Assembly (NCBI GenBank): GCA_977862235.1 | Contig: OZ374564.1 | Span: 2,604,001 to 2,668,000, forward strand | DNA length: 64,000 bases | From: Dudresnaya verticillata | Taxonomy: Eukaryota | Reading direction: 5' to 3' | Shown: piece by piece, positions 4,812-64,000 of the stretch | Position numbering within the stretch: the stretch's first letter is position 1 | How the letters are laid out: the number at the start of each line of letters is the position of its first letter | Position numbers and translations under genes: made by a program | Notes under the pieces: model-generated | The model's input: only the letters and a program-made list of their open reading frames with translations | What the model was told of the DNA's origin: nothing | Database searches by the model: none

Positions 4812-5114
4812 GCGGAACAGGTCATTGGCCAGGTTAAGTCTCGATTCGCTTCTATGAGAGAGCTGCGTGTTCAGATTGATACAGAGGAGGACATCCGCAG
4901 GGCAGGAGACTGGATAATATCTGCATTCGTGTTACACAACATTTGCCACCAGTACCGGGACTACGTCCCACCTATGAGCGAAAGCGCCTTCCGTTCCCCA
5001 TCCGTAAGCCCAGATTCTATACCTGGGGCAGAGGGGTCTTCTGCTTTTGTTAAACGCGAGGCGGTTAAGGACAAAGTTTTACAGCATATGGTAGAAAATG
5101 GCACTTACCTTTGA
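4812..5114 (+). pseudogene. C-terminal fragment of a PIF/Harbinger (HARBI1-like, DDE_Tnp_4) transposase, interrupted by Gypsy 1
   Basis: Frame right after the LTR reads AEQVIGQVKSRFASMRELRVQI...WIISAFVLHNIC, matching the Harbinger E..FG.LK.RF..L...LHN signature. Confidence 0.85.
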
Positions 5115-5254
5115 CGCTTCTGCTTGCCGTATGACATTTGTTGTGAGAGTGTGGAAGAGAAATTTCTTTAATGTGTACCGAGACATGCATGCCATTTATA
5201 TCTGACGTGGGAGAGTCCAGCGCACTGAGCATGAGAGAGTTAGGATAAGTTCAC

Positions 5255-11129: not shown

Positions 11130-11513
11130 TTAAATGTATAAGCCCGTGATTGCTTCGCTGAAGCGTGCAGATCCCAAAGTCCAATTAATCTTCAAGGTGT
11201 GAATGTCAATTTGAACATACAAGCTATACTGGCTGTTGAACAGATAGATCGACCACTGATCGTAACGTTTGAAGTCAAAGTCGATTGGCGTCGGACCATT
11301 GAGGTGCCACGCCCATTTGGATCCGGAAACCTTCACGAATTTACCATGGCTATACTTAGCGGTGGTAACCTGGGTAGGGCTTATTTTGATGGCTGTGGAG
11401 AGATCGACCTTCTCGGCAGCATTCAGCTTTGTGGTGCTACTTTGTGGGGCAGCAGCAGTGAGTACGACCAGTATCAGGGACATGGCAACGAACAGTGGGG
11501 TAGAGGTCATCAT
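11130..11513 (-). CDS. Secreted protein A, copy 1 (127 aa, divergent variant)
   Basis: ATG at 11513; hydrophobic signal MMTSTPLFVAMSLILVVLTAAA; beta-rich aromatic mature domain (GKFVKVSGSKW...YDQWSIYLF...VQIDI); TATAAA upstream at 11669-11674. Confidence 0.8.
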   Translation of the reverse strand: MMTSTPLFVAMSLILVVLTAAAPQSSTTKLNAAEKVDLSTAIKISPTQVTTAKYSHGKFVKVSGSKWAWHLNGPTPIDFDFKRYDQWSIYLFNSQYSLYVQIDIHTLKINWTLGSARFSEAITGLYI

Positions 11514-16051: not shown

Positions 16052-16555
16052 TTAGACAGACGCCGCATTCTGCTCAACAGCAATCCGCTCCCGAATCCCA
16101 ACACCCATTCTCGATATCGTGCAGAAGTTAATCCGCCTCGGTGCTGCCGGCGCTGGCTGTGCCAAAGCGTTAAGACCGTCAATAATTTGCTGCCTGATAT
16201 TGCCAATAACAGTCTCTACAGCATTTGTCCAGTGCGGGTGTGCATTTGGACCCTGCCCATGAACCCTGAAGAATTCGTTGCGATGGAATGCAGCTTCGAC
16301 ACGATTGGTGAAGTCCCTAACACGATTGAGAAGATCTTGAGTTGCAGTTCTCCCTCCCACTTGAACCCGAACGTACGTTTCCAATGCTCCCAACTCTTGG
16401 ACTAGGTTCTCCGGAGTGGTGTTGTCCCGAAGGATGTAGGTGCGGGTACCAGCTGTGACTTGTGCAACTACCCTTCCAACGGCTTGTGAGTCAGTACCTG
16501 GCAATGAAAGGATCATCAGAAGCGAGAGGGAGCACACCGTAGCGAACGTTTTCAT
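16052..16555 (-). CDS. Secreted protein B, copy 1 (167 aa, helical, unknown function)
   Basis: AAAATG start, signal MKTFATVCSLSLLMILSLPGTDS, amphipathic-helix-like mature region. Confidence 0.8.
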   Translation of the reverse strand: MKTFATVCSLSLLMILSLPGTDSQAVGRVVAQVTAGTRTYILRDNTTPENLVQELGALETYVRVQVGGRTATQDLLNRVRDFTNRVEAAFHRNEFFRVHGQGPNAHPHWTNAVETVIGNIRQQIIDGLNALAQPAPAAPRRINFCTISRMGVGIRERIAVEQNAASV

Positions 16556-18173: not shown

Positions 18174-18608
18174 ATGAATCGTTTGGTTACTTTGACGATT
18201 TTGATGGTCCTTTCCGTGGCATCGGCAGCCGACGTTTCAAAACCGACGGGTTTCACGTTCGCAGACAAAGTCGTGGGGCATTGGAGTCCGGGAAATTGCT
18301 TTGGAAGGGCATCAGATTCCCGCTGCTGCGAGCACGAAGCTTACTGGTGCGGCAACCACAAGTCGGGGGCTCAGGCTCATTGCCAGTACTGCATCAATAA
18401 CTGTCTTGCAGTTCCAAATGCTGGGGCGGTGCAAGTCAGAGTGGGCGGGGCTTTCGAGACAAAGTACACCCAATCTGCTCTGGCTTGGGGGAAGCTGTGC
18501 AAACATGTTCATGACAATGTAGACTGCCCTACCCCGAGAGTCTGCCTACGTGATGCAAACTGCAGACACAAGGCTCTATCTCAGTCTATCCCCAGATGCA
18601 CAGCTTAA
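18174..18608 (+). CDS. Secreted cysteine-rich protein C, copy 1 (144 aa, 12 Cys)
   Basis: GCCATG start, signal MNRLVTLTILMVLSVASA, 12 cysteines including CC and CxxCxxxC. Confidence 0.85.
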   Translation: MNRLVTLTILMVLSVASAADVSKPTGFTFADKVVGHWSPGNCFGRASDSRCCEHEAYWCGNHKSGAQAHCQYCINNCLAVPNAGAVQVRVGGAFETKYTQSALAWGKLCKHVHDNVDCPTPRVCLRDANCRHKALSQSIPRCTA

Positions 18609-41904: not shown

Positions 41905-43821
41905 AGCAGGATCAGCTACAGTGGCAGAGGGCTGTCACTGTAGTGTACCCCGGGAAGGAGAAAAGGACAGCGGTGGTGTGTCTATGATTGGGTTTACTTT
42001 GTTGATGATGAATTTACTTTGTTGCTGACGTCGGAATAGCTCTTGTACTGAGTTTCACCCTCCACGCGAACGTGGAATTGAATGCAACTACTGACAATAT
42101 TCAGTGACAATTGACACTGCATTGCTACTCTATCTTGACCTCTCCGGCCAAGGCTGGGCCAGATTGACTTCGCTCGAAGTCCTCTGCACCTGCCCAAGTT
42201 GAGCGACAAGGAGAGATTACTTCACTCAGGAAAAGCAGGAATACTGAAAGGGAGCTTAAGGGCTGTCACTCAATACACTGGAGGACAGCTTGTGTTGATG
42301 AACGCAGATAGTTACCTATCTATAGCTAGCTATGTAGAGGCATTGGAGAAAAAGAGGCTCAAGACGAGTGGAAATTTGAAGCTATTCTGCAGAAGGGGGT
42401 ACTTTTCCTCACAGCCATGAAAGAAGTAATACTTTGGATTCCATGTTCGAATCCTGTCCCAAGACGACAATAGGTATCCATTACCATATGGTGGAAGTCC
42501 ATCCCAAGGTTGGAAATCCATCCCAAGGTAGGAAAGACTGCCACAAACCCTGAGATAGTGTGAGTGCTTCTGTCGTTCGCGAGAACAAGTAGCTTGAACA
42601 GAACTACAGCCCACGGGCCCAGTATTATAGTGAGGACTGATAAGAGAAACACCGAAGACTTGCAGACAATTGATACAGAGAGAGAGTCCGTGCCGTGTCA
42701 TTGGGTAGGTGAGGGTTGGGACCATACATGCAGCTGGCTTCTGCGGAATGCAGTGCGGCGATGGTTGCTATTCTTTGAGCGATGGTGCGGAGGATGGGTG
42801 GGGTAGTATCGGTTTGCAATAGGAGGGAGAGGAGCATCCCGGGAAGCAGTGCAAATTGTTGCATGGGCTGGTTCTGACGGGGACCAGGAACGCTCCCAAA
42901 TTCCAGCAAACCGCGAGGTGGCGTTAGGCGGGACATAGAATGCTGTTGTACCTGGGAAAGTTGGGAGAACTTCGGGACAGGGCCGGTCACCTGCCTTGAA
43001 GATCGACCCCCCTTTGGCGCAGATGCGAAGCATCATGATAGCTCCGGAGGCGGACTGCGGCGAAGAGACTGCACGGCGAAGGGATTTAGAAGGCGATCGA
43101 CTGAGCGCATATAAGGATGCACGGGCGGCCGGGGAAAATCGGGGGTCCCTGCAAAGTGCTCCAAGTATTGCAGCTGTGCAGCGCGATTTTAAACGTTTGG
43201 GCTTGGGATGCCCTTTTCTCTGGTGTTGTCCGAACCAGCGCGGTCTACGCCGAAATATAACGATTGCCGTGCTCATCCGCTCTCCGCGCATTCGGCCACT
43301 CTTCGACACGACGAGCATCACATAATGCTTCCCAAATGCGATCGGCGTTGTACAGTTACCGACAATTTCAAGGCGGTGTGATCAGCCGGCAATCACGTAA
43401 CTATTGTTCTATTGCCTCGTTCTCAGTGCATATTTCGGCCTTATTACTTTAGTATGAGGCCGAGAATAAGCCTGAACACATTGAGTATGAGCGCGCCAGG
43501 GCGCCCGCGACGCTCCGTTGAGCACATCTCACAGACTATAAAAGCCCACCTCAGACAACCGCAATCGAGGCCATCCGCCGAACGCCCCACCGCCCTCACC
43601 CTACGAACCACATCTGCTACCGCAGCGTACGACAGCCGCATTCTCGCGTCGTTTTTCTGCCAATAGGCCAAAGCCGCTGAGGCAGACCCACTCTAAACCA
43701 AGTGAGTAAACGTTTGTCAGCACCTCAGACACCCACAAGACAACCGGCATCCTACTTGATCTGCCCGTCAAGCTCCCCGTCCCCAAAGGGAACTTCCCCG
43801 CGCATCCAACATCGCTACAAA

Positions 43822-44981
43822 ATGGAAGGCTCTTTGCAACAACCGAAAGCGAGGAAGAAGAGGACCTATGCCACGAGGGAAATGACCTCTTTTATTATTC
43901 AATATTTGTCTTCCGCAATAACACCACCGACGTATTATCAACTGAGAATGGCCGTTGAGGAGAGGGCAGCTGAGACTGCCGCAAGGGAGGCCCTCGAGGC
44001 TGCTCCTTCGGTCCAGGCCGTCAACTATTTTCCAGAGTTGCCGGCATGTGATACCGAGATCTGTAATAGACCTCCGGACGTTCTCGACGAAATCGCTGGG
44101 CCTTCTGAGGGCGACCGGTTTGGACCTTATGATGACAATGCCTGGGCACGACTATTCTCGGAAATTAAGGAAGATCCGGCACCCGTCTTAGAGATGCCCG
44201 AAGAGCCCCCGGTTGACATGGTAACCCCAGTCTCGCCGGTCTTGGACGCCCACCATGATCCCGGAGCAAATCAAGAAGCTAGCGCTGAGCACCAGGAGGA
44301 ATTCGACCGCCGTTATGAGGAAGGTTTATCAATGCCGTCCAATGAAATCTTGCAAGGTTCCCTCATGAACCTACAGACACCAGATCTTGAGGAAGAGGAT
44401 AAAATTGCTATCGCAAGGAAAAAAAGATTACACTCATGAGAAGAAGAATGTACGACGTTCTGAACACCCTCACAGCCGCAAAGATTGTAATTCGACCTAC
44501 AACTAACAGTGAAATTCTATGGGCTGGGGCTGAATTTCGGTTACGAACACAGAGAAGTGAGCCCCATGGAGCACCAGCTCTGGTGTTGCCGGCTAGCCCG
44601 GAAGCGGCGGATGATAGAACGAGGAGAATAGAGTACGAAAAACTGGCTATCCGTGCCGCTAAAGAGCGCCAAAGCAGCATCTGTACAAGGTTGACAATTG
44701 AACGCAAGAAGCTTCTTTTATCGGATCTTGTGACTATCCAAGAGTGGAGGAGCAAAGAGCCCAACAGGAATTTGCATGGTAACGGAAGTAACAGCCAACC
44801 GATCAAAATGCAAATTCCGTGCCTTGCGGTTGAGGCTTCTGAGATGAAAGTCACAGTAGAGGAAGCAACGAGCGATCAAGGTGTTAATGAAACCCTCATT
44901 CTGGACCTAAAAGAATGCACATCTTTCTCTGCGGTGACGATCGTGAGCAAATTGTGCCGAAGGTTGCTGGGACGCATATGA
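43822..44981 (+). pseudogene. Divergent E2F/DP-family (DP-like) transcription factor, frameshifted at A7 (44419-44425); could be intact if the indel is a sequencing error
   Basis: RRRMYDVLNTLTAAKIV...EILWAG matches the DP DEF box (RRRVYDALNVL...EI.W.G). It is followed by a coiled coil and a QIPCLAVEA..VTVEE..LILDL segment like the DP dimerisation domain. Confidence 0.75.
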
Positions 44982-46524: not shown

Positions 46525-47379
46525 TTGTCACCAGGATTGACGCCGACTCAAGATGGTTCGCAAATGCAGGACGCTAATTTGGGTACAGTGCCGAAAATGG
46601 TGTCAACAACAGTGACTCCCAATACGACTCCCGGGCGATGCTCCGCAATGCCTTGTACGCTACTCTCGGGGACATCTAGGCTGTACTTAAGGGAGCCGGA
46701 AACTCTTCGTAGAGAGTTCCGCAAGTTCATCCTTTTCCAACAAGTTGGTAAAGGTGTCACGCTCATTTCCGAGTGGGAACGTCTCAGACCGATGACCGAG
46801 AACCAAGCCTTTCGAGAAAGCAACATCAAAGATGCCGAACCGGAGGAGTACAGCAAGGTTCTCAATCACCTCATGGCTAACAGTCTTGTTGGTCGTGCTC
46901 AGCTTTGGCCACGCAGCGAGTTTGTTCAACCGCATTATCCAAGCTCTTTCAAGCCCCAGTCCAATTTGTACCGCGACACCGTCAAGAAGGATCGCCGTAA
47001 TGGGAAACAGCTCGAATACATACACAGCTCCGGTACTTGGTTGGAACAGTTGCTTGCCGCCCTGGAACTATTCAAGTCTAGTTCGGATCCGCAAGAGCAG
47101 GGTCGCTTGCTCTTCATACTCGAAGAATCAATTCGTGCCAGTAAGGAAATCCTCGCGATGCGCACATCGCATTTCCACGCCATTCTCACGAAGGGTCCAG
47201 CACATGCACGCCTGCTTGCTGATCTTGTCGAGGGTAAGGTGGAAGCAAAGCACTTTCAAGTACCTTCCACACCCTACGCCGATGTCTATAATGAGCTCTC
47301 TGCCAAATACATCAACAAAGCTGCGAAAGGAATCGCTCGTAACGCTACCGCGCCCAAGGAGGGTGCGAGCGATCAATGA
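46525..47379 (+). CDS. Gag-like ORF1 of a DIRS-type retroelement
   Basis: 284-codon helical ORF whose stop overlaps the RT start (ATGA at 47376-47379). Assignment is positional. Confidence 0.55.
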   Translation: MSPGLTPTQDGSQMQDANLGTVPKMVSTTVTPNTTPGRCSAMPCTLLSGTSRLYLREPETLRREFRKFILFQQVGKGVTLISEWERLRPMTENQAFRESNIKDAEPEEYSKVLNHLMANSLVGRAQLWPRSEFVQPHYPSSFKPQSNLYRDTVKKDRRNGKQLEYIHSSGTWLEQLLAALELFKSSSDPQEQGRLLFILEESIRASKEILAMRTSHFHAILTKGPAHARLLADLVEGKVEAKHFQVPSTPYADVYNELSAKYINKAAKGIARNATAPKEGASDQ

Positions 47380-48221
47380 TGGCTCCCGCAGGACCATCAC
47401 GCCCGGAAACCTGGTCACAGGCGCGATGGGCATCCACCCAACGCCAGGCCAACGAGTGGGCCGGAATTGGGGCATCCTGTTTCGTGATTCGGATGTTAAC
47501 ATTTGGTATTTGGGACCCTCCCCAGCGACCCTTCACGGCTGGTGCTATCCTGCCTGCGGTGCCACAGTCAAAGGTGGATATACTTTTTGCCTAGTAGGAT
47601 CTGGAGGAAGGATGCAAAGTTGGTACATACCAACGCGTGTCCGAAGCGTACGCGAAGAAGAAGGTGCAGCAAGGCTGTTACGTGTCCTCCGCATTTGTGG
47701 AATGGAGTTCCAGCAAAGGTCGATTCGTTATCAACCTAAAACGCCAGTCATCGCATTGGGACAAGAAGTCTGTTATGATGGAATCGCTCAGCTCCTTTTC
47801 TTCCTGCCTTGTTCAAGGGGACCACATGCTTTCGTTCGACTGAAGGAGTGGATATCGACATTTCCGACTCCACTCACGCATGTGGGATTGGTTCTTGTTT
47901 CACTACGACGGCTGTTTCTACCGCTGCATTGCATTGCCTTTCGGTTGGACGAGGTCACCCTACTGGTTTTGCCATCTCCAAAGTCCGCTGACTCGGTATA
48001 TGCGCTCTGCATTGTATTCCCGCGTCCTCCAATGGATAGACGATTACCTCCTCGTTCCCGGAAACGGTTCTTCGCCCAGCACCTCAAAGGACTGCGAGGA
48101 TCTCTCTTCAGCTCTGGACGTCCTGTTCAACCGACTGCGATTATTGCGACACCCATCCAAAGGCGTCTGGGGATCCGGCGCCCCTACCTTGTCACATCTC
48201 GGAGTTACAATAGATACAGAA
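47376..48221 (+). pseudogene. DIRS-type reverse transcriptase with in-frame stops, truncated by an insertion at 48222
   Basis: One frame with stops at 47592-47597 and 47841: KGRFVINLK, MMESL, GDHMLSFD*RSGYRHFRL, ALPFGWTRSPYWF, WIDDYL, HPSKG, HLGVTIDTE. Confidence 0.85.
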
Positions 48222-48536
48222 CACTAATTTCGCCGGCTACAGAATTTCCAAAACAGAACAGAATTTTTTGAGGGTCCTTGAATCCCGGGGGTTCGATAGC
48301 GCGTTGGAAAGGGGGCGCTACCCTGAGAATAGTGGTGCAAACAGATCGGAGCAAACGCAAATAGTTTCGGAGTTATGCGCTCCGGCATATGGGGCCCCCC
48401 CGGGGTCGAAAGTTCCCGAAAGTTGTGATTTTTCCGAAAAGTTCCAATTAAAAATTCTCCAGAAATTGATTCTGGCCCGTCCCGCCGCCCGCGCGCCCGC
48501 CCCCCGACCGCACACCGCATTCTGGCGACTTCCCGC

Positions 48537-48683
48537 CGCATTCCGACGCGCTCGGACTTGGCTTCCCACCGCATTCCGACGCGCTCGGACTTGGCTTCCC
48601 ACCGCATTCCGACGCGCTCGGACTTGGCTTCCCACCGCATTCCGACGCGCTCGGACTTGGCTTCCCACCGCATTCCGACGCGC
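48537..48683 (+). repeat. 33-bp tandem repeat, ~4.4 copies
   Basis: Unit CGCATTCCGACGCGCTCGGACTTGGCTTCCCAC, head to tail, no spacers. Confidence 0.95.
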
Positions 48684-48904
48684 GCTCGGCCACCTCCCCA
48701 CGTCCGACAGCCACTCCCACCATCACCCTTCCTGGTGCTGCTACCGGCCCACGCATTCCGCATTCTGGCGCGTGCGCACGCGCTCTGCTTCTGCCTTGCG
48801 CGTAATGAGGCGCGCTTCCCCACCCCTCCCAGACCCGTAGTGCCGCTCCTCGCCCCAGTCCGGCCTGTGACCGCACTCTGTCTCACGCTCCCTGCCGTTC
48901 ACCG

Positions 48905-49275
48905 ACACCTCGCCGTCACCCTTCCCCGCGCTCCTGCGCACCGCGCCCGGCCGCATTCTGACACGTCCACATGAAGTTGCCGCATTCGGGCGCACGGTCA
49001 GCCCCTCGCAGCAGTCCCCCGACACGCCTCCCTCACCCTTCCCCGCGGTCCTGTGCACCGCCCCCGGCCGCATTCTGACACGTCCACAACAAGTTGCCGC
49101 ATTCGGGCGCATGGTCAGCCCTTCCCAGCAGTCCCCAGACACGCCTCTCTCACCCTTCCCCGCGGTCCTGCGCACCGCCCCCGGCCGCATTCTGACACGT
49201 CCTCATCAAGTGCCCGCATTCTGACGCATGTTCAGCCCCGCCCAGCAGTCCCCCGACACGCCTCCCTCACCCCTA
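48905..49275 (+). repeat. ~119-bp tandem repeat, ~3 diverged copies
   Basis: Recurring CACCCTTCCCCGCG..CCTG.GCACCGC.CCCGGCCGCATTCTGACACGTCC...GCAGTCCCC.GACACG. Confidence 0.9.
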
Positions 49276-49611
49276 CCCCGCTCCCGTGCGGCACGGCCAC
49301 CCGCTTCCTCACAACTGGGCCCACTACCCGTCCGACCTGGTACACTACCAGGTAGCTAAGCCACTTGCGCACCCGCGGTTCGGACTTAAATTGTGGCGTA
49401 GACTGACGCTACAGGCGTCGATTTCCCTTGCGGTTCTGCACAATGCCAGCCTGACCCCATTGCATTCTGTTGTCTGCGCCGCGTTTATTGCGCCGCAGCT
49501 GAGGACCATGCCATACTTCAATGGGGCACATCCCCGATTGTAGGCCGCCAAATGGAATGAAGCGCATTGCTGTGCTCATGGGAGAAGGCCACCACTTTAC
49601 TATCTCTAACG

Positions 49612-50133
49612 TTAGCAATCGCTGCTATCGTGTTTCCGCATATACAGCCCTTCACAACTAGACAGTTCATTGTTCAGGCTCCTCATGATGCACATCCTCA
49701 CCTCCGGTTTCATTGCGCGGCTGTTGGACATGTAGAATTTTGTGCAAAGCAGACGTGTGTAGCGGTCCAGTTGATACGCGTTCTCTCCGCCCCTGTGCAG
49801 CGTTTCGACGATCGCGAAGTCTATAGCATGGGCTGCACCGTGCACGTACTTGCCCCTTCCCACGAGAAAGATTTTCTTCAGCAACAACCTGTACAGCTTG
49901 TCCAAATCTTTCTGATGGTGGGAATGCTCCATCATCGTCTTGTCTGCGAAAAATTGCTGTGATGATTCCCAAGCCATTTGGGCACGATCCAGGTCATTGT
50001 GGTTGTCCAGAATGTCGTCGTCACTGCTAGGGCTTTGGTGCGTCCATTTTCGTGCCTCACGATGAAGATCTTCCTCCATCCGACGTTTAACGGCGTTGTA
50101 TAGCTTTCCCACATCCAGAATCAAGTCATCCAT
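49612..50133 (-). CDS. Hypothetical helical protein inside the CACTA-like element (173 aa)
   Basis: ATG-initiated with protein-like composition; no recognised motif. Confidence 0.5.
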   Translation of the reverse strand: MDDLILDVGKLYNAVKRRMEEDLHREARKWTHQSPSSDDDILDNHNDLDRAQMAWESSQQFFADKTMMEHSHHQKDLDKLYRLLLKKIFLVGRGKYVHGAAHAIDFAIVETLHRGGENAYQLDRYTRLLCTKFYMSNSRAMKPEVRMCIMRSLNNELSSCEGLYMRKHDSSDC

Positions 50134-50641
50134 GGTCTCAATACAGCGGTATTCTGGTCACAGCAGATTATGGTGATGAACGAACACTTTGTTTCATCTC
50201 AGCTCTCTTTCCGAAATGGCCGAGGCCTTTACCTACGACAGGATCACTGCGTGCCAGGGCAATACATGGTCCATCTTTCCACGAGCTGACGGGTGTCCAT
50301 TTCATATGCGTTGGAGACAGCCCTGGGCGCACTCCGGTATGTAGTCGATCAATCACTTACTGCCAATATGCCGCAACGTTTCCAACAGCTGCAGCAGTAC
50401 GGTACATGTGCCACACTCGCGACAGCCTTCCGTGACAGATTCTGTTTGGTGGACCAAATATAACCCCCGCGTTCATAGTACGGCACGTGGAAGCACTGGC
50501 GTTATTCGAGTAAATGGTGCCTGAACGACGTCGAATTCATGTACCATGGCGGAAGCAAGACGCAAAGACATGTTCAGAATACGGATGCTCGAGAAATGTT
50601 CAATTCGGCCTATGACAATAGTACTGTACTGACTATAATTC

Positions 50642-52539
50642 CTACCCAATCTTCTTCATGTTGTGCAAGTCCCACGAGAACAACAAACCGTTTAGGTCCT
50701 TGAGATTGGCAGGAGGGTCCTCTACTCCCTTGAATATATACGGATACGAACTTAGCTCATACTCCGCCATGACCTTCAAACTGTAGACTACCACAAGATG
50801 CTCCCCTGGTTTGGCAGATTCTGACAGATCGTGGCCGTGCAAGCGTTCATTCCAGTTCCCTCCTGGAGTCTTTTCAGGATGCAACACGGCCTCCCCCACT
50901 TCCTTATCATCTGCAAGAAGCGTGACTCTGTCTCCGGCCTTGGGCATTGCACTAGGTTCAGGTGTTTTCCTTCTCCTGCACTTTTCATTTTTCTCCACAC
51001 TTCCTACAACTTTGTCTTCACTCCTGCCGTGCTTCTCGATACTCTCTTCGGGGTCATCCAATACGTGCTCGGACGGTGTCGTCAGATGGGACATTTCAGG
51101 TCCCTTCCTCGTTACGGAATGGTTTGTTGGTGGAGCAGAATCTGTTTTGACAACACTACCTCTTGCTGCCTCACCGATACCATTCAGTTTGTCATGAGCA
51201 CTTGATTCCAAACGTTTACGACCTGTCTTCATTTCATATGCTTCCGTGGCAAGCCTACGCAAACGTTCAGCCCCCAGCTTGAATGTTTCGACCTGTGATT
51301 CGATTAGTGTACACCGACGATCTGTTCTGAGAGCTGCAATCCCAGTCGTCATGGTTCCGCTGTGCATATCCAGAACTGACCCGCCCTCCGGACAGAATGT
51401 TGTCATTATCTCCACAAGTACTTCGGGAGACTTCTCTTCGACCAGAACTGAGGACTTGGTGCCTGGGCATAGCAACTTGTGTTTCGGTGTTGGTAGAGAG
51501 GACATGCACGCGAATTTCCGCTTTTCTGGGGAGGGGATGCAGTGATACTCGCTCCTGAGGTCGAGCGAGAACCCTCCGCCATGCTGACCTGGGGCACGCG
51601 CCATGACGGCTATTTCCACACAGTTCTGGGGCATATCGCTCCCCCGATGTTCCTGTATGGTCTTGGGGTCTTTGGAGAATACGAATGGGTATGCTGGGCA
51701 CATGAATTGTGCCTTCTTCAGAGCATCGTGGAATACACTGAAGTTCAGGAATGACGTGAAAACAAACAACCACCCCCTGCTACAAGTACGCGCCTCGAGA
51801 ACTCAACTATCTTCTTAATGTCTTCCTCGCTGAGGTAATTATCGAATGACCTTCCCGACTTAGACTGCGATTTCGGTGTACCGTATGGTGGATCAGTGAG
51901 GATTAAATCGAATCGTTTGTCACCTTCCTTCCTTACGGTACTGTCGTAGCTCTGCCATGTCATCTGAAAGCATGTCAGTTTCATTTCCGCAAGATAATCT
52001 ATTGGAACAGAAAGCGATCCGTCCTCCACCGGCACAGCCTTAGTACCCATGTTGAGACGAACAAACTGCTTTGATGAAACAGTTGATACAGTGGGGTCTG
52101 TGGGACTCTTTTCCGGTACAGAAAGGTCTTTGGCTGCACATGCAGCTTTAGGGTCTGCGTTCTGGACGGGTGCCTGTCCAGATTCTGCTGGTTCGCGACC
52201 TTCTTCCCTTTTCGAATTGGTCGATGTTACTAAGTCTAAAACCTCTTCGTCGTTAGAGATTCCGGTAGCGTCCACCTGCGGTGACAACGTGCAGTCCAAA
52301 TTCTGTTGACCGTCAGAATCTTTTGCTCCACATTCGTTGGAACCCGGGCGGGCCATGACAGCGTCATCACGTCTGCCTTCTGTCGAATCCATCACAGTTT
52401 GCAGATCTTTGTACTTCTGCAACTTCACTGGGGCCTCTTCCGGACAACACTCTCTGTACATCTCAACTATTGTTTTCAATAGTGTACGGTCATTACCTCG
52501 ATTCATGATGACCTCGACGTCCAGCTTCGTAGTGTGTAA
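50642..52539 (-). pseudogene. Beta-class amino-DNA methyltransferase (N6_N4_Mtase type) fused to an En/Spm TnpA-like C-terminal domain; 1-nt frameshift at 51773-51777; 5' part cut off by Gypsy 2
   Basis: FDLILTDPPYG (DPPY at 51883-51894), SRRVLVAGG/WLFVF, then EEKSPEVLVEIMTTFCPEGGSVLDMHSGTMTTGIAALRTDRRCTLIE: catalytic motif before SAM-binding motif. Confidence 0.85.
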
Positions 52540-53188
52540 TGTGGTGCAACTCACCTGTGCTCATTTCCCTCAAATCGCGGATTCACCGCCAGCAACGTAC
52601 TTGGGGACTGCCCCTGTAAGGCGCCCGGCCTGACAGTGCCCGGCACCCTCTGCCAGCAAGGATGGCCCCGCAAGACGACAACGCGTACACGTGCACATGT
52701 GCGCCCCCTTGACGCACACCGTTCAGCCACACTACCACTAGGCTGACAGTTGATATTTTAGTAGATAATTATAGAATTGTGCGCGCCACGTAATGCCAAG
52801 TGGCGCGCCCCCTTCCCCTACCTTAATCCGCCACCAAGGCGCACCCACCTCCTACATAGTATATTAGGGCCCTGAGGTGCGCCCTCATACAGTAAACGGC
52901 CAAGCTTGGGCCCAGCGAGACGTACCCTCCTACCCTATCGACTCCCTCTCTAGGCTGGACTCCAGTACGTACGCTACCCTTCTTCATCGTACGGAATCCT
53001 GTTTTTCTCTTATTTTTCCCTCGGTTTCTCTTCCTTTCTAGGGTAACCCCCTTTCTCGGTCTTGTAGTGTTTTACAGTCGCACTACGGGGCTACTCCCCT
53101 GCTCTACCGCTACTACCTCACCTGCTACCGCCAGGCCCCCGAACCGCCTGAGGTGCATCCTCGATTCTACCGAGTGGATTGCACCACA
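52540..53188 (+). repeat. 5' LTR of Gypsy 2 (649 bp)
   Basis: 10-bp inverted ends TGTGGTGCAA...TTGCACCACA; candidate TSD TGTAA at 52535-52539. Confidence 0.93.
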
Positions 53189-53190
53189 TT

Positions 53191-53206
53191 TGGTCTCCCG
53201 ACCTAG
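53191..53206 (+). other. Primer binding site of Gypsy 2
   Basis: TGGTCTCCCGACCTAG 2 nt after the LTR, complementary to a tRNA end ...GGGAGACCA. Primer tRNA not identified. Confidence 0.75.
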
Positions 53207-53293
53207 AAGTTCGGAAATTTCGATTGGCTACGTTACCTACGTTACGGAACTCCCGTTCTTCTAGTTCAAACCTTTAAGTTGCAGTTATCTGCC

Positions 53294-55718
53294 ATGCCCA
53301 CCCGTCAACAGCCGTCTTCGGCAAGGTCTGTACCAACGCAGACTGCTGCCAATATGGTGACGCGTGCACGTGCGCAGGCAAGCCCTGCGGTCCAAGCCGC
53401 TTTTTCGGCAATAGCCAATGAGGGGGTTCCGCGCATTCCCCCCTCGGTGGAGATCGTACCTCCTGCCCCAGCCGGGACTCTCCCGACTGGGCAAGACCAA
53501 GGCGGGCAGCCGGCACCTCCGCCGCCGCTGCCCAATCCTCCGCCGCCGATTTCGGCATCACTTCCGCCTCCGGTGGAGTCACCCACAATCCAAGAGGAAG
53601 CACCTCGTGTTGCCTTCATACACGGGGCAACTATTCCCCGAAGTGCAATTCAAGAGGTTTGCGTCATGGCAGGCCAGGCTTTTGCCGCCCGGCTGTCGCG
53701 TCAGATAACGGACAGCCTGGCTTTGGTCAACCAACGTATCAACGAGGTTAGTACTCGAATTGACCTCGTCCTGGAGAATCCTCCACAGAACCACCCGGAC
53801 CTCGCCGTTGAGGTCCGCACACTTCGAGGAGACGTTAAACGCCTCCTCGAAACCTACGGGGCTACTCCCGCAAGGGGGTCCAGTCCGAATCCCCCAAGCC
53901 TACCCGCGGAGCTTCCGCTCGATGACCGCATTACGCGGATTGCCGACCGCTTGGAGCGACTAGAGGGCATATGCCTCAACGAGCGCGAATCGCCAGTACA
54001 TCCCGATGGCCGGGGCGCGAACCGACGACAAGTCGAATTCGACAATCGCCATCGACAAGGGGACACCTACCCTAAGGACAGTTGCCCGTACGGGTGTGCT
54101 GACCACCCGCATGATGACGATTATCGTCAAGAACGCCGAGAAGAACGGCGTCAAAGCCGGCATCGTGACACAACGCGGAATACCCGCAGTCGCCACCACC
54201 ATCGTCACGGCTACGGAAGTTCCTCCAGGTCGGCTTCCGACAATTCGGACTCAGACCGCTCCGATGGAGAAGTTTGGGGAAATCCCCGTCGCGACGATGG
54301 TACACGACGCAAGGGGCCGCGGTATAAGCTCCTCAAGGAGCTTAAACCAACGAACCCCTTGTATGACCAATTGCTGTCCTACAGGTACTACCGCCTACAG
54401 AATACGGAACAATCCCGTACAAGCCGACAGACCGGCAAGATCAAAGACCAGATCAAAAGACTGGAGTTAACCATGAAGGATTGTTCCTTTAACGGGGAAG
54501 ACCCGTGTTGATTTTGGAGTTTCTCTCCCGGTTAGTCGACGAAGCCGACACTCTCGACATGTCGGAAGCACAGGCGTTCATCGCCTTGCCCTACTTCTTA
54601 CGCGGAAATGCCGCTACTCAATTTCGCTCCGTCAAGGCCGCTCCGTCCCGTTCTAATGGAGGAGTATCCTCATGGCCCGAAGCTGTGCAGTATCTTCTGC
54701 GGACCTACGCGACACCGAGCGCGCTACGTGAGGCAATCCTCGAGCTCCGCGCTCTCCGGCAGAACGCGGGCGAATCGGAAACACGCTTCGGGATGCGACT
54801 CTCGAAAGCGTGTAACCGATGTGGCAACGTCCACAAGGCGTGGGAGAAGATGACGTACTTCATCGACGGCCTTGACCCGAGCATCCGCTCGCTGGTCGCC
54901 CGATATCGAGAGGAAACTCCTCGTCACGAATTTTCGTTTGAACGACTAGTGCATTACGCACAAGACGAAGGTGAAGCTCACCGTGGAAGAAGTCGCGCAC
55001 CACGCGCTGGACAAGACCAACTCGCGGGCCGCAACGCGACTTCAGGAGGACGTCGTCCAGGGCGCGGAAATTCCGCTATGATGGCCGAGTCGTCAGTTGA
55101 ATTCCGAGACGGAAGTGGAGTTCCACGTAGGCAGGTGGGCGAGCAGGATGCCGAGGTGCACCTCTTGTACCCAGACGCGGCACTGCTCTCGTCCGACCCA
55201 CCTACCGACTCACAAGTAGGATCCTACGGAAGCGAAGATAACGCGTTTCTTATGCGCTCTCGTCAAGTACCGGCCCCGCGCATCCCATACCAGGAGCATT
55301 CGCCTGGGATGACGCGCGCACGGCCGGGCTGGCAAGATAGGGGAAATCCCCAAAGGAACTTCGGCCCCAAGCAGACAGTCATCTGCCACATTTGCTACAA
55401 GCCTGGGCATGTTTCGCCCGAATGCTTCCTGGCATAATCCTCAGGTAGTCCTTCCTGGCATGGAAAGACTACCTGAGGATTATCCTCAATTATGAATCGC
55501 TCAGTGCGGTCGACCGCGAGCGTGTGCAGGCTACGTCCTACATGAAGGCGAAAGCACAGGCCCAATACGACGAGGCAAGGCCTCAAGGTCGACCGCAGGG
55601 ACCGCCCAACGTGGTACCCCACACTAGCGAACGCCACCCTCAGGCGTTCGCGCCCGCTGGACAGCCCCCTGCGAATGGACGCGACGGACGAGCGGACATC
55701 CGCAATGCGGAAAACTAG
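53294..55718 (+). pseudogene. gag of Gypsy 2 (disrupted near 54505 and 55437)
   Basis: FNGEDP, capsid-like helices, FIDGLDPSIR, CCHC knuckle CHICYKPGHVSPEC. Confidence 0.88.
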
Positions 55719-58700
55719 TCGGGGTCACACCCCCTTTGACTGGGGAGCTTCAACCGGAACCATCTCAGATCGAAGCTCAAGGGTCACGACCCGACAAGCA
55801 GGAGGATATAACTCCAAAGACTATACTGCAGAACCCTGCAAGGACTAGACGGACCTCGGCCTCGCCACCAATGGCAGGATTACGCAGGCCCTGGCACCGG
55901 TACCGTCCACCGCATGCACAAGGCGAATTGCTGATAGCGGCAAAGCGCAACTTTAAAGTATACGCAGATACGGGTTTACACCCAAGCTACCTATCGCGTA
56001 AACTTACTGTGCTAGATACCGGTGCCGGTCCCAACTTTATCAGAAAATCTGAACTACCACCTCAAGCGGAGTCCCACATTCGAGAAGGGGACATCCCCAC
56101 AATCAGCGACGCCAACAATCGGCCGTTGCAAACATCCGGCGTCATCGCCTTGGTCGTTCGGCTGGGCGACCGCATTGTCAAACTTGACTCTATTGTGTGC
56201 GAGAGACTCGCCGCCCCGGTCATCCTCGGATGTGACTTCTGCGACCGTTTCGTAGAAGCCATCTATCCGAGGAGCCGTGAAGTCGAACTCGACAATGGGA
56301 CTCGCGTGCCGATTACGCGGCGACCATTGAAGCGACCGCCCACGGCTCCGCCACTACCCGATGATCAGGAGTATGAGCCACTACGAGGCCACACCTCAAC
56401 GAAAATACGCGTAGCGGGACGAACCGTAATCCCAGTCCAAGCGCAAAAGTGGGTTTCGGTAACCACAGAACGCGCGGGGCTGATTTGCCTTCAGCCCTAC
56501 GACAAGCCGTACCACCGGCAGGGAATCATCGCAACGAATGGCATAGCCCATGTTGAACCAAAGCGGCCGTTCCGCATTCTAGTCGCGAGCTTCACCACGC
56601 ACGACCAAGTTCTTCCGAAGAACCAGGTCGTCGCTACCGCCCTCCCGCACCTCACCGCCGTGGTGCCCAGTCCCATCCGGCTGGCGGACGTACTTGGGTT
56701 GGCTGACTTAGCGGACGAAGCCGCAACAAAAACCCAACGATTGGGAAGACTTTCGAATACGACAAACAAAGGTGACGCTCACGCGAAGACCCTTGAAGCT
56801 GAAAACGAACCTCCACCTTCGGTGGACGACGTGGATTTATCCCACCTGACGGAGAATCACGCCGAGCGCGTGCGGGATTTACTTGGTAGGTTTTCTACAA
56901 TGTGGGATGGTTCACTAGGTGAAATCACCACTACGGAACATTACATCGATATGATTCCGGGTACGAGGCCGTTCTCGTGCCCACCCTATCGGGCGGGTCC
57001 GAAGCAACGCCAAGTGGAACAAGCGGAAGTTGACCGCATGCTACGAGCTGGTGTTATAGAACCGGCACAATCTCCCTGGGCGTCTCCAGTTGTTTTGGTG
57101 CCTAAAAAGGACGGTACCTTACGATTCTGTGTCGATTACCGACGTTTAAATGCCGCAACTGTTCGGGATACCTACCCGTTACCTCGCATCGATGAATGCA
57201 TCGATTCACTCGGCGAAGCGAACGTCTTCACTACGCTCGATTGCAACTCGGGGGATTGGCAAATCCCCATCAACGGTCGCGATCGTGACAAAACCACGTT
57301 TACTTGTCATGCGGGAACCTTCCGCTACAAGCGAATGCCATTTGGCCTTACCAATGCACCCGCTACCTTCCAGCGGACCCTGTATATCCTGCTCTCAGGT
57401 TTCAAGTGGCAGACATGCCTCGTTTACTTGGACGATGTAATCATCTACTCCAAGGACGTGGAATCCCACTTTAAACACGTCGAACAGATCCTGACTGCAT
57501 TGGACCAAGCTGGGGTTACCCTCAAACTCAAGAAATGTGACTTATTCACAAACACCGTCGACTACCTGGGCCATATCATCCGCCCCGGCGAACTGCGGAT
57601 CGACCCAACGGTCACTGCGGCCCTCCGCAAAGCAAAACACCCACGTACGCAAACGGAATTGAGGTCTTTCCTCGGATTGTGTAACGTATATAGGAGGTTT
57701 GTCCCCAATTACTCTCACGTGGCAGGACCACTGAACCGGCTCCTCAAAAAGGATCACCCGGACAATATTGAGTCGCTCGACGACAAGCAAGAGGCCGCGT
57801 TCCAGACGCTGATCAAAGCTGTCACGGAACCACCAATACTATCTCTGCCAAAACCTGGCTTGCCCTATTCTGTCGATACCGACGCGTCGAACTACCAGGT
57901 CGGCTGCGCCTTATTCCAAACGCACACCGACGGTACGAGGAAACCCCTCGGGTACTGGTCCCGTTCTCTGCAAGCCGCCGAAAAGAACTACTCGGTTTCC
58001 GAGAAGGAGTGTTTGGCATTGGTGTGGGCTGTTACCACTTTACGACCCTACCTACAAATGGAAAGGTTTACCATACACACCGATCACTCCTCTCTTCTTT
58101 GGCTAATGGAGATTAACGACCCCTCCGGGCGCCTTATGCGCTGGCGCTTACGTATGTCGGAATTCGACTTTGACGTCCGCTACAAGAAGGGACGCATTAA
58201 CACCCAAGCGGACGCCCTTTCGCGTCTTCAAACGCTTGGCGAAACCCAAGTCGATATCGACGACGACATTCCGTGTTTCCACGTTGAGACGGACGCCCCT
58301 TCAACCTGCGCCGTTTGCGATAATGAGGAATTCCTCGAATTGGACGACGAAGTCTCCGACCAACTCCTTCTGGCGAATCCGCCGTCCAACCAACCTGGGC
58401 TCTTGCGCCCAATCACGCCGGAAGAACTTCTTCAAACGCAATAAACAGATGCCTTCTGCACCTCGCTGCGTTCTCGTCTTAGCGGGGGGAGGGGATACCG
58501 TTCGCGCTGGACGAGACAGGAGTCCTCATTCGCACACGAGAGGCACTTCCTCAAATTGTGATACCCTTTACTCTTCGCGCACGTGTGCTACACCTGGCAC
58601 ACTTCCCGAAACTATCCGGACATCCCGGTGGTCGCAAGATGTATTACTCACGCCGTAGATCATTCTACTGGCCTTCCATGGCTGTGGACTGTTACGCCAC

Positions 58701-60909
58701 CGTAAGAAACTGCACAACGTGTGCACGCAATCGCGTTATGCTACGCCGTAATACAAAGCATATGAAGCTGTTTCCAGCAAAAGCACCCCTGGAGTTTGTC
58801 TCCATTGACATCTATGGCGAACTGATTCGCACGAAACGAGGCAATCGATTCCTCTTGGTCATCACAGACCGTTTCTCCAAACTCGTTCGGACAGTTCCGA
58901 TGAAGAAGATTACGGCTGCGAAAGTTGTCGAAGCGTTTATTACGCATTGGGTCTACGTCTACGGACCCCCGTTGTACCTACTATCGGATAATGGCGCACA
59001 ATTTGCCGCAAAGTTGTTTCAGTCGTTATGCGGAACTTTGGGGATCAAAAACCTCTTTACTACAACCTATCACCCCCAATGCAATGGGCAGGTTGAGCGG
59101 TTCAACCGCACAATGCGCGCCGCGCTACTGCACTACGTTGCGGACCATCCGCGTGAATGGGATCTATTCTCAGATGCCATCACCTACGCGTACAATACGC
59201 AAGTTCATTCTACCACGAACCTGGCCCCCTTCCAGCTGGTACTTTCCAGACCTCCACCCGCTCTAAGCGTCGAGGCACATCCCTCACTGGAACCAGTACC
59301 GAGTTCGGCTACATTCCACGCCAAGTGGCAGTCCTGGCTCACAGGACTACTGTCAACGGCCACAAAAGGCGTTGATCAGACACAAGCGCGATACAAACGC
59401 AATTTCGATAATAGGGTACGTTCCTCACGCGACGTCATCGGAGTAGACTCCTACGTCTACGTACGTAAGGAGTACTATGGGAAGGATACCCCAAAACACA
59501 AACTGGCGCCTATCGCCGATGGCCCCTATCGCGTGAGTGACGCAAATGATAAGACGGTCACCGTCGAGAAGGACGGACCCGAATATGAGCGGATTTCCCG
59601 CGACAGAGTCGTGTTGGCACCCGCCCCACCAAGGGACGCGACCAACCAAGCCGACGCCGAAGGGACGGCAGGCCCGACAGATGCGGATTTACTGCCAACA
59701 AACGATCTCAATAACGATCATACTCGAGTACAGTGCCCTGACGGAGCTACTGTGTCTCACGGGGAAAATGCCCCAATTACTTTTCACGCTGTGGCGCCAG
59801 CCATACAACCACGCAATGATCGCGGGTTGGCGGATTTACCGCCGCCCATAGTACCCGGACGCACCGCTGGCGTCCGCTTGCGGACTACCGCAATTCACTC
59901 ACCACCGGCCACACGCGCTGAAGCCTCTGTCTCCACTCCAACCCCTGCTCCCGCAAACCCGGAGCCGGGATCTGGGCCAGCGAACGACGCCCTCGCAGAT
60001 GGGCACTCCATTGCGGATCACCCGCACGCCGCTTCGGCAAGCACCAAGACCGTCAACGGTACAGCAAGAGAGGAAATACCTCGCCAGCAGCAACCTGCAC
60101 ACAATACAGGCACAGCCGCCGCCCCGGGGAATACTCCTCAAGCGGAGCCCCTCTCACAACCAACGAGAACTACCCTTGATAATGTGGATATTCCACAAGA
60201 ATCAACAAAGCCGGACATACTCCGCAAAGGTTCGCCTACTCGTCGAACAACCGAGAGCCCCGAGCCAGGGCCCCCTAGAAGGGCCGAAACCCGACGCGTT
60301 GATAGTAAGGATCACGCCCTCAAAAGCGCGACACGCGATGTGTCGCCAGGCGCATTGAGAACGCAAGACCATTCCAAGGAGAATTCTCCACGCCCATCAG
60401 GAAAGAGCGTCACATTTGACGACAGCATTAGGGAAATCCCTACGCGGCCTGTCGTGAGCCAGAACCTCGGAGCAGAAGCGGCAGACCGCAATCAAGGAGC
60501 AACCGCGACCATTGGCGCGCCAAGCCCCAGACGGAGTCGCCGTATAGCTACCGCCGCGCCACGCGCGTCACAGTTGGATACTCGGCAAGAGGACCCCCCT
60601 CAAGCACCGCCGCCTAATGACACCCTGTCATCAAGGCACCGACACAATGACGGCACTCCACCACGTGACGAGTATGTCATCGAAAAAGTGGTAAACCACA
60701 GTTATGATAATACAGAACTTCTGTTTGAAGTCAAATGGTACGGCTTCCGTCTTCGCAAAATACATGGGAGCCCATACAACATCTACCGCGGATTCAAGTT
60801 ATCTCCTATTGTAAGAGGAGACGTCTCGGCGTCCCCTCCACCATCACCAAAGCAATGGTGGGCTAGCCCCGAAACGGGACGCGCGGACGCGGCTACTAAG
60901 TCCAAATGA
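55715..60909 (+). pseudogene. pol of Gypsy 2 (PR-RT-RNase H-IN-chromodomain; stop at 58442-58444, frameshifts near 58490 and 60750)
   Basis: LDTGAG, LRFCVDYRRLN, MPFGL, YLDD, TDASN, KECLA, TDH, integrase HHCC and DDE, EYVIEKVVNH...FEVKWYG/TWEP. Confidence 0.95.
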
Positions 60910-63870
60910 AGTGGAGACACCACATTGAAGAATCGGGCTCAGGAGTCGAGGCCACAGTAGCTGCCGCAGACACAACGGGAGTACTGTACGCCACAATAGC
61001 GTATCTTATTGGTCGGACGAGATATTAATTATCATCGCACCACTCAGACGCTCCCTGCGCGCACCTACTCACCCTAACGTCGGCCGCAATTAATTACCTT
61101 CGTCTTTCCCAAAAGTCGAACACGGCTAAGTCAACAAACGCGATCGCCTTGAGCTCGAGCATGCACAAAACGGGATTCCGTAACGACTACCCCGACCCGA
61201 CGACGTCCTGGAGCAACCGTTCCCCCATGGGGTGGCGAACGCTTCGGCATAGGTCATAGGCAACACGCGGAATTCCGCAACTCAGTACGGGTCCTTCAAA
61301 GCTAAGCGCCACGCGCACGACCCCTCTGATATGGGGCCCCATAACGCCCCTTTTGGCTAACTACTGAGGCACACCTCTACACAGGCCGCCACAATTCGCA
61401 GCTGCGACTAGTCTCGCACTACCGCTGCCTACAAGTCGTCGCCGACTGACCCTACCTAAGCAGTTATGCACAAAACGGAACTCCCTAAGCCCTTAACCTA
61501 ACCATCAATGGTATTGCGTGCACACCGCCCCCTCCCTACGACGAGGGGATGCATTCGCATACATCGGCCCAATGCAGTGCTGCCTAAGTGGGAACTACCA
61601 CTACTTCCCTCATTACCGTGGCACTCCACACGATCGATCGCCCGCATCCTGGCCAATGCTATAGGCGGACACTACGCTACGCGGCATTCCGCTCTCCTCA
61701 CTACACTCCGTCCCACTTCGTCGAACTCGACTAGACACTTACGGACCTATTTGCGTTCGCCTCGCCGCTGCCGATACGGGCCCGCGTGCATCGTGGGCAA
61801 CCCCGCCCGGTAACAGGGGTCTGCCCACACAATTAATGTGGTGAGTCCACAGTAGATGACTAGCCCACTGTACACGCCGCAAGTCACGTGACGTAGGCCA
61901 TGCTGTCGCCCCTCCTTGGGCAGTGGCGGCACCAGGAGGTGCTGCCCCAATCAAATATAACAAGCATGCATACAACCCTCACCCAGCGGAAAACCGCAAG
62001 CAACCGCCGCCATCTTCCGCAAGGCGACTGCGACTAAGTCAGCAAAGGGCACTATGCACAAAACGGAATTCCGTAATGGCCCCCCCAAGCCACAAACGGC
62101 CTTGAGCATCTGCTCCCCCATCAACAGGGGAACGCCTTGGCTCAGGTCGTACACAAAAAGCGGACTTCCGCATCGCGGGGTACTCGCGTCAAAAACGCAA
62201 AGCAATGCTCGCGACTCCTCTGATATGGTGCTCCCCATAACGCCCCTTTTGGCCCAACTACTGAGGAACACCTCTACACCGACTGCGTCCAAGCGCAGTC
62301 ACGCGCTACTACCGCCACATTATTCGCATACGTGGTAGCCCCCACGACGGGCACCCGCGATCAAGCCCACCGGTATCAAGTCGCGTTGATATTTCGCGGC
62401 ATTTCCGCTCCCCTAAACTATGCCGTCCCGTCGACGTTGTCCCATCACACTACGTCGAACTCGACTAGGTCGTTGGACGGCCCACTTAGGGTCGTCTCCC
62501 CGCATAACTATGGTTGAGTCTACTCAGAGCAACGCTGGCGCGAATGGGTCAGTATGCCCAAAGTCAACCATGCCCGACAACAGCTGTCTGTACAGGCGCA
62601 CGATTAATGTGGCGGTACCACAGTACCGGACTGGGCTACTGTACTCCCTTCAGGTCACGTGCCTCAGGCCACGCTATGGATTTCCATTGGATAATAATGG
62701 TGCCGGCGTTTTCCGCACCAATCATCTGCGTGTGTCCACACAGAGGCCCACTCTAGCGGACGACCGCAAGTACACCTCATCCCCCAAGTCATGCACGACT
62801 AAGTTGCAATTGCGAGCTATGACCAAAACGGGATTCCGTATTCAACACCCCTGGCCGCCAACGGCCTTGAGCATTCGCAGCTCCAGCGACGGGGAAACCC
62901 CTACGTCCAAGTCGCTAACGAAATGTGGACTTCCACGCTGAGCGGCACGCGCCTCACTGGCGACATATCGCGGCCCGTCGCTCGCCGGCATATGCCTGTG
63001 CGAACCGATACGCATTACCACTCGCAAAAGGGGAACTCCTCTGCAGCGACGCGCCGCATTACGGCAATCAGGAAAACAAACGGGCAAACTTTTAATAAGT
63101 CCTGGTTATGGCGACGCTCTCCCTACTACAGTGCATGGGCTAGTCCCACAGGGTCGGTTGCCCCACACCACATGTCGACGATCGACTAGATATGAGCAGG
63201 CCCGCTTGGGCCCGCTCCATCCTCGCCATCCGGGTTATACCCCTTGTCCATAGCAGCCTCGAGGAGCTCCTCGTCGCTGCCGCGGATGGCAATCTCGGGA
63301 ATTCCCGTCCGACGCAGAAAGCCGATCACGGCAATACGCTGACTCAAACTCATCCGCACGCGACGTGGGCGAGGCTGGAACTTGTCGATTTTCGACTTAG
63401 TGCTCCGTTAGAGTGTGCAGTACTGCAAAAAGAGGAAATGTCTCATACACGGCCCATTTATGATACAAATTGGAAACGGCCGCAAGACACCGAGACAGGG
63501 GCCGCAGCGACCCCCTGAGTAGCCCTACGGTTACCGCGGTTACTGTAATGCACTTACAGTGGTCCGGACCGGACGGTCCACTAGAGGACCAATCGGCCCA
63601 TGAAGAGGACCAGTCGGTCCACTAACTGGACCGATGTGAGGAAAATGTGTGAGGATGGCGTACCACGTAAACATTGAACAGGTCGGTTCGGCTGTGGAGA
63701 CCGTCGGACACCTCGTACCGTCCACTGCCTTCCGGAATGAATGCAAAAGTCGGATTGCCACATATGGACCTATAACTATTGACTTTTGTGCTTTCTGAGA
63801 AGGGAGCGTAATCTTCAGTGGGATATCCACATCGTTCGTGGGTTGGGCTCGCAGGGGCTCACCTCTTAAC

Positions 63871-63880
63871 GGGGGGGAGA
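63871..63880 (+). other. Polypurine tract of Gypsy 2
   Basis: GGGGGGGAGA directly before the 3' LTR. Confidence 0.92.
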
Positions 63881-64000
63881 TGTGGTGCAACTCACCTGTG
63901 CTCATTTCCCTCAAATCGCGGATTCACCGCCAGCAACGTACTTGGGGACTGCCCCTGTAAGGCGCCCGGCCTGACAGTGCCCGGCGCCCTCTGCCAGCAA
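63881..64000 (+). repeat. 3' LTR of Gypsy 2 (partial)
   Basis: Matches 52540-52659 with one mismatch. Confidence 0.97.

Follow-up and report, generated by a model that had tools for sequence, protein, structure and literature searches.

A putative beta-class methyltransferase gene behind a CACTA-type terminus in Dudresnaya verticillata

Can a eukaryotic cut-and-paste transposon carry an amino-methyltransferase of the prokaryotic type and mark its own DNA with it? This question is raised by positions 48222-52539 of a stretch of Dudresnaya verticillata DNA (GenBank assembly GCA_977862235.1, contig OZ374564.1, positions 2,604,001 to 2,668,000; 64,000 nucleotides, hereafter the window, whose numbering is used throughout), in which a terminus starting with CACTA is followed by repeat arrays and by a minus-strand methyltransferase gene that a Gypsy retrotransposon interrupts. 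We consider it likely, with a probability of roughly 0.7, that this segment is one end of a giant transposon of the EnSpm/CACTA type, and that the protein of intact relatives, which combines a putative ParB-like part with a methyltransferase, would bind and N6-adenine-methylate the DNA of its own element.

Insertion junction and subterminal repeats

The CACTA motif (48222-48226) lies on the plus strand directly 3' of the end (...HLGVTIDTE) of a reverse transcriptase (RT) frame, which matches RVT_1 (E 1.5e-5, one stop read as X) and which we take, from its motifs, to be of the DIRS type. The GAA that precedes CACTA would be the 3-bp target duplication of the inserted element. Since CACTA occurs 73 times on the plus strand of the 64-kb window (about once per 880 nt), finding it at the RT break hints at an insertion end without proving one. 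EnSpm elements are described as having CAC..GTG ends and a 3-bp target-site duplication, and fungal Plavaka elements as having TGT or CATCA ends (PMC12730594); the single end seen here, a CAC(TA) start at the RT break, therefore agrees with EnSpm, taken broadly. At up to three mismatches, the first 21 nt of the terminus do not recur in the window, in either direct or inverted orientation, and inverted self-comparison of the segment 48222-52539 returned one 16-nt palindrome as its sole match. Folding of the terminal 299 nt was no better than that of shuffled sequences (z +1.3), and no tRNA or Rfam match was found in the window. An 18-nt match to the terminus in one viral contig is confined to those 18 nt and was treated as chance.

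Behind the terminus, repeat analysis revealed a 33-bp array of 4.7 units (48529-48683), in which every full unit contains the hairpin TCCGA-N5-TCGGA (5-5-5), and a 117-bp array of 3.4 units (48888-49281). Common to both is the 8-nt motif CCGCATTC, present in 13 same-strand copies within 48222-49500; in 2000 dinucleotide-Markov simulations, it occurred 0.11 times on average and never more than 3 times. This end thus has the kind of subterminal repeats, built around a recurring short motif, that characterises EnSpm/CACTA elements.

The methyltransferase gene of this copy

On the minus strand, DPPY (51883-51894) precedes VLDMHSGTMTTG (51376-51341), and the gene halves that carry these motifs match PF01555 with E values of 0.031 and 1.1e-4, respectively, both below the curated cut-off. 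Because contiguous segments of P0007, a relative of 1003 residues, align to them (residues 366-610 to 52539-51763 and residues 607-998 to 51775-50648), the two halves were assigned to one gene. Judged by its sequence, it is a beta-class amino-methyltransferase of prokaryotic type, with the motif order, IV before I, that it shares with proteins pairing a ParB-like part with an N4/N6 methyltransferase. DPPY and VLDMHSGTMTTG lie in different frames, with the break at about 51763-51775 at a short G run, and the Gypsy element, which starts at 52540, truncates the gene near the position of residue 366 in the 1003-residue relative, some 365 codons from its start. Owing to the frame break near 51770 and the Gypsy cut at 52539, the copy as written makes no intact protein; the former could be an assembly error, the latter is real. 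No SET domain (PF00856) was found in the two halves within the window; the 5' part of the gene lies beyond the Gypsy cut, while its C-terminus is complete and consists of the barrel domain described below.

An earlier note on this stretch, made from the letters alone, had described a CACTA terminus that interrupts a DIRS RT, subterminal repeats, and a minus-strand gene with DPPY ahead of VLDMHSGTMTTG, which it classed as a beta-class amino-methyltransferase of prokaryotic type. Each of these descriptions was borne out: CACTA at 48222 directly follows the RT frame, the 33-bp and 117-bp arrays share 13 copies of CCGCATTC, the motif coordinates agree, and PF01555 is matched in both halves. The frame break and the Gypsy cut had been under-stated.

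Protein family of the relatives

A search with the C-terminal half gave two relatives of 54% and 51% identity, one of them from a cluster that includes 1003-residue members such as P0007. With P0007 as the query, 1064 cluster representatives were obtained at E<=1e-3 (127 at <=1e-30), the best 150 of which are listed. The full-length relatives, about 800-1100 residues long and encoded by long, intron-less open reading frames (ORFs), combine a beta-class methyltransferase with a putative ParB-like part at the N-terminus and, in many cases, a tail of the SH3-like kind. PF01555 is matched by full-length P0007 (E 3e-10) and by 48 of the 50 mostly long members scanned. SET was found in none of 50 long members at E<=0.01 and in none of 21 proteins at E<=10.

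A profile built from 81 family members gave its best matches to beta-class adenine methyltransferases (5hek, 1.9e-19; 8urk, 1.6e-14; CcrM, 1.5e-10; RsrI, 4e-5), compared with 0.002 for the N4-cytosine (N4C) enzyme PvuII. Phage enzymes are 25-27% identical over the domain (15 rows listed), and no close relative was found in the scans of prokaryote genomes or viral contigs (IMG/VR). In a phage contig, L002:8441-10234 encodes a protein of about 600 residues with PF01555 (DPPW), an N-terminal HGWHR reminiscent of ParB and a motif I without the second glycine.

The three-part architecture, an N-terminus with a DGxHR-type motif followed by the PF01555 domain and the C-terminal barrel, was seen in the relatives only. 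Their N-terminal part is ParB-like with moderate confidence, as suggested by the conserved block W-[YF]-G-[VI]-[VI]-D-G-x-H (among 81 relatives, D in 73, G in 79, H in 52 and a following R in 38). Weak DndB matches also fall in this part (E 0.014 in P0007; 5e-4 among 50 long members), and the Atlas neighbours include phage ParB_N+N6_N4_Mtase clusters (0.85-0.86), which are outranked by two unnamed streptophyte clusters (0.91 and 0.89).

Of the 172 proteins fetched, a count that includes near-duplicates, 39 have the C-terminal domain of about 105 residues. Its AlphaFold 2 (AF2) model has a predicted local distance difference test (pLDDT) score of 92.5 and gives weak but consistent matches to SH3-like barrels of the KOW, Tudor, BAH and PWWP kinds (best Z 4.6, root-mean-square deviation 2.5, 52 aligned residues). 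Foldseek against PDB and BFVD returned nothing at E<=0.001, and the domain of the window gene and of 20 relatives has no Pfam match at E<=10; the best Atlas neighbour (0.80) is unnamed. A suspected likeness to the tails of plant CACTA TnpA/ORF2 proteins (PF03017 / DUF8039) was likewise not confirmed by any Pfam match at E<=10.

Preferred reading and alternatives

In the reading that we prefer, the CACTA end and the gene very probably belong to one element whose transposase lies beyond the window, and its far end would be a TAGTG end, AATTAGTG, with GAA and the remainder of the RT frame beyond it. Judging from the long intron-less ORFs of the family, the mix of elements and the literature, the host would be an intron-poor alga, probably a florideophyte red alga. 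In intact copies, the N-terminal domain would load on the repeats of the element, as ParB does on parS, the enzyme would write N6-methyladenine (6mA) rather than N4-methylcytosine (4mC) there, and the mark would help the element to stay transcribed or transposable against host silencing. Such repeat-guided N6-adenine self-methylation by intact copies appears to be the most likely mechanism, ahead of a non-catalytic binding role, at slightly less than even odds.

The observations that weigh against this reading concern both the link between gene and terminus and the activity of the protein. With regard to the link, no DDE transposase of the CMC clade was recognised in 48222-52539, and neither the six locus scans with protein queries nor the one with the terminus recovered a eukaryotic relative together with its flanking DNA. 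A scan of metagenome contigs with P0007 returned nothing, and the alignment-based scans gave two partial matches (42% and 44%; L001 and L002) and nothing else from genome contigs and viral contigs. L001 and L002 were rejected as loci of the family, being prokaryote- or phage-like long branches outside it in the tree. Among sequencing runs, one DNA run (share 0.05) and no RNA run was listed; its contigs contain short pieces of the methylase and of Gypsy, but extend over neither the terminus nor the junctions nor the frame break. The link is thus drawn from adjacency at one locus and from the published layout of such elements, and with the far end, the target duplication and the transposase all beyond the window and no homologous locus recovered, membership of the gene in a CACTA element is likely rather than shown. 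Alternatively, the CACTA end and repeats could be a separate, non-autonomous insertion, with the methyltransferase gene sitting in another nested element of the Mutator, Zisupton, Sola or Fanzor type. Mutator, Zisupton, Fanzor-encoding and Sola1 elements are described as carriers of related accessory genes (bioRxiv 10.1101/2025.02.11.637652 and PMC12477816), and the failure of the locus scans to tie the gene family to CACTA ends is compatible with such an arrangement. We nevertheless regard it as distinctly improbable: the terminus has no inverted partner in 48222-52539 or in the rest of the window, self-comparison of the segment gave only the 16-nt palindrome, and repeat arrays beside accessory genes are the very layout that the preprint describes for red-algal Plavaka elements.

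With regard to activity, the ParB-like assignment meets three negative results, namely no Pfam ParB_N match in the 50 long relatives scanned, no ParB structure matched in the family profile search and no match between the N-terminal profile and the L002 phage protein. Catalysis was assessed on 76 near-complete domains taken from 155 sequences examined. DPP[YF] is kept in only 25 of them and absent from 51, and at least four changes of this label are forced across the tree (LG+C20, 237 columns, two distant outgroups). Two thirds of the sampled domains (relatives P0018-P0176) have replaced DPPY by EPPx, DPFQ, xLPS and others, in full-length proteins forming well-supported subclades, which suggests that non-catalytic forms are kept. 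The textbook form of motif I is FxGxG, and at its second glycine none of the 76 domains has glycine; the window gene, moreover, is alone in having His at a position where 68 of the 76 domains have Tyr or Phe. Given these deviations, not even intact members can be assumed to be catalytically active. Retrotransposon-borne adenine methylases of the Dam class gave no 6mA gain in E. coli according to bioRxiv 10.64898/2026.05.21.726589. Both the loss of DPP[YF] and the family-wide departure of motif I are what one would expect if the protein were mainly a DNA- or chromatin-binding scaffold, such as a TnpA- or VANC-like anti-silencing or end-binding factor, whose methyltransferase fold serves as an often dead binding module; the C-terminal predicted SH3-like barrel, with its weak Tudor/BAH/PWWP/KOW likeness, points the same way. 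We consider this rather unlikely: the starred clade of eight (100/98) to which the window gene belongs has DPPY in 8/8, although the closest member is only 53% identical, which suggests selection on the catalytic motif there. The least probable of the alternatives is that the enzyme writes 4mC, or methylates RNA or single-stranded DNA, instead of placing 6mA on duplex DNA. PF01555 spans both activities, phage matches include records named cytosine methyltransferase, and the solved structures that match best carry the label DpnA-type, which denotes enzymes described as acting on single strands (PMC4738411). The motif rules in the same source, by which motif IV of N4C enzymes typically begins with Ser, argue for adenine, as motif IV here starts with Asp, and adenine enzymes rank far above PvuII in the profile search.

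A wider extension of the preferred reading would see in these genes a large algal transposon-borne family that fuses a parS-type repeat binder to an active writer of 6mA and a reader of the SH3/Tudor kind, acts as the functional ORF2 of SET-less giant CACTA elements, lays a private adenine mark on their repeats and has repeatedly switched to dead readers. As a whole, this picture is speculative and rather unlikely.

Other features of the window

Table 1. Features in and around the inserted element, with the basis on which each was called.
Feature	Position	Strand	Basis
ORF 5' of the RT, likely gag-like ORF1 of the DIRS-like retroelement (target, outside the insertion)	46525..47379	+	284 aa; gag inferred from position
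DIRS-like reverse transcriptase with internal stops, cut after ...GVTIDTE by the insertion	47380..48221	+	RVT_1 match, translation
CACTA-starting terminus of the inserted element	48222..48242		Sequence; single copy in window
Subterminal repeat block: two arrays and 13 same-strand CCGCATTC copies	48515..49281		Repeat analysis, simulations
Possible second, decayed gene (weak)	49612..50590	-	181-aa open frame 49612-50157, in-frame stretch with six stops ahead
C-terminal ~105-aa beta domain, predicted SH3-like barrel	50642..50968	-	Conservation, AF2 model
C-terminal half of the methyltransferase with motif I VLDMHSGTMTTG	50642..51775	-	PF01555 match; 38% identity to P0007 residues 607-998
Middle part with catalytic motif IV DPPY, cut by Gypsy at 52539	51763..52539	-	PF01555 match; 31% identity to P0007 residues 366-610
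TGTAA, expected left target-site copy of Gypsy	52535..52539	+	Sequence; right copy beyond window
Gypsy long terminal repeat (LTR) retrotransposon (gag, RT, RNase H, integrase, weak chromo match)	52540..64000	+	Pfam; LTR comparison

The coordinates of the main features are collected in Table 1. A Pfam scan of the 284-residue ORF upstream of the RT gave no match. Between the repeats and the methylase, the frame at 49612-50590 is at best a decayed second gene: the searches run returned no homolog, family or fold, a single-sequence structure model reached a pLDDT of 43, and a frame as long as 181 residues arises in 24 of 500 simulations. The 3' LTR of the nested Gypsy element starts at 63881, and the window stops 120 nt into it, 119 of these 120 nt being identical to the 5' LTR. 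Despite these near-identical LTR starts, gag and pol (53207-60909) are split over several frames, which hints at indel errors in the assembly that may also explain the frame break of the methyltransferase.

Elsewhere in the window, a tandem array with a period of 9279 bp (about 9366-41645) comprises about three near-identical full units (99.6-100%) and diverged partial units (93-98%). The units hold short ORFs whose hydrophobic N-termini resemble signal peptides (175 residues at 11130-11657, minus strand; 167 residues at 16052-16555, minus strand; and a Cys-rich one of 144 residues at 18174-18608, plus strand). None of these ORFs has a real Pfam match, and the two tried against PDB gave none; the array could reflect recent amplification of genes for secreted proteins or a duplication in the assembly. 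At about 4800-7000, there is a likely Harbinger-type element, in which a fragment from the transposase C-terminus (DDE_Tnp_4, E 0.022) points towards two ORFs on the minus strand (5255-5944 and 5945-6997) that have no real Pfam match; it is apparently cut near 4800 by another LTR element with an integrase ORF at 2-1579. Finally, 43681-44981 contains a cellular gene resembling E2F/DP (E2F_TDP, E 3.9e-4), which is spread over two overlapping frames and is possibly split by an intron or frameshifted.

Comparison with known systems

The earlier note had also presented a CACTA element with such an enzyme as new to any standard family and had proposed that the element had captured a methyltransferase. 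The first claim is not supported at the level of the kind, which is already published, as methylase cargo on algal DNA transposons and with the same idea of self-marking: PF01555 cargo of red-algal EnSpm/Plavaka elements and a Sola1 element of Ectocarpus are in print, as set out below. Of the second, it stands that a methyltransferase gene lies behind a CACTA-like end; the capture itself looks, from the sequences compared, ancient and common to a large family rather than particular to this element.

Among the closest published counterparts are red-algal Plavaka (EnSpm/CACTA) elements of 17-19 kb, which carry PAG2 (PF01555 and SET) and PAG3 (ParB and 2-oxoglutarate (2OG) oxygenase) beside tandem inverted repeats, and whose genes are described as moving among Plavaka, Mutator, Zisupton and Fanzor-encoding elements (bioRxiv 10.1101/2025.02.11.637652). 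By description, the window gene resembles PAG2 as a PF01555 methylase carried by an element of the EnSpm/CACTA superfamily, and both kinds of element have tandem repeat arrays next to accessory genes as well as degenerate copies. In contrast to PAG2, which joins the methylase to SET, the long relatives of the window gene have SET in 0/50, and because SET is absent, the window gene is not PAG2 as defined. Likewise, ParB in the Plavaka elements stands on a separate gene, PAG3, whereas the ParB-like motif of the relatives is part of the methylase protein itself; a gene resembling PAG3 was not recognised beside the repeats, where the searches with the adjoining ORF gave neither homolog nor family.

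Equally close in kind is the ParB-like and N4/N6 methyltransferase protein of 1104 residues on the 21.5-kb transposon Sola1-1_Ec32 of Ectocarpus, for which self-modification was proposed as a hypothesis (PMC12477816). It is likened to the window gene by description and not by sequence; its carrier is Sola1 as opposed to the CACTA-type end found here, and the passage in question mentions no C-terminal barrel, such as is predicted for the window gene. The red alga Chondrus crispus has giant EnSpm families whose multi-ORF CACTA elements (16-20 kb, 4-5 ORFs; PMC6431247) are comparable in general type, the passage concerned giving no gene content. The available passages of PMC12633428, PMC11244446, PMC13519894 and PMC12695648 contain nothing on methylase cargo. 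Phage fusions of ParB_N and N6_N4_Mtase and bacterial beta-class adenine enzymes (the DpnA-type 5hek, CcrM, RsrI and MboIIA) share with the window family the order of motif IV before motif I and a similar domain pairing, and differ from it in that the family has an added helical region, the C-terminal barrel and an altered motif I.

Overall, the comparison suggests that the gene likely belongs to the ParB-like and N4/N6 methyltransferase kind of accessory methylases of algal transposons. The full-length DPPY relatives P0007, P0018, P0019 and P0172, together with the repeat motif CCGCATTC, are candidates for testing the proposed self-methylation, for which the dead copy in the window cannot serve; should the activity be borne out, this would be a eukaryotic DNA transposon that places a bacterial-type mark on its own DNA. 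SET-less or CACTA-ended forms may already stand in Supplementary Table 6 or Fig. 13 of the Bostrychia preprint. Relative to the published passages available, three details go beyond what they describe, namely the SET-less form behind a CACTA-type end, the conserved, predicted SH3-like barrel, and the finding that two thirds of the family members sampled have lost the catalytic motif.

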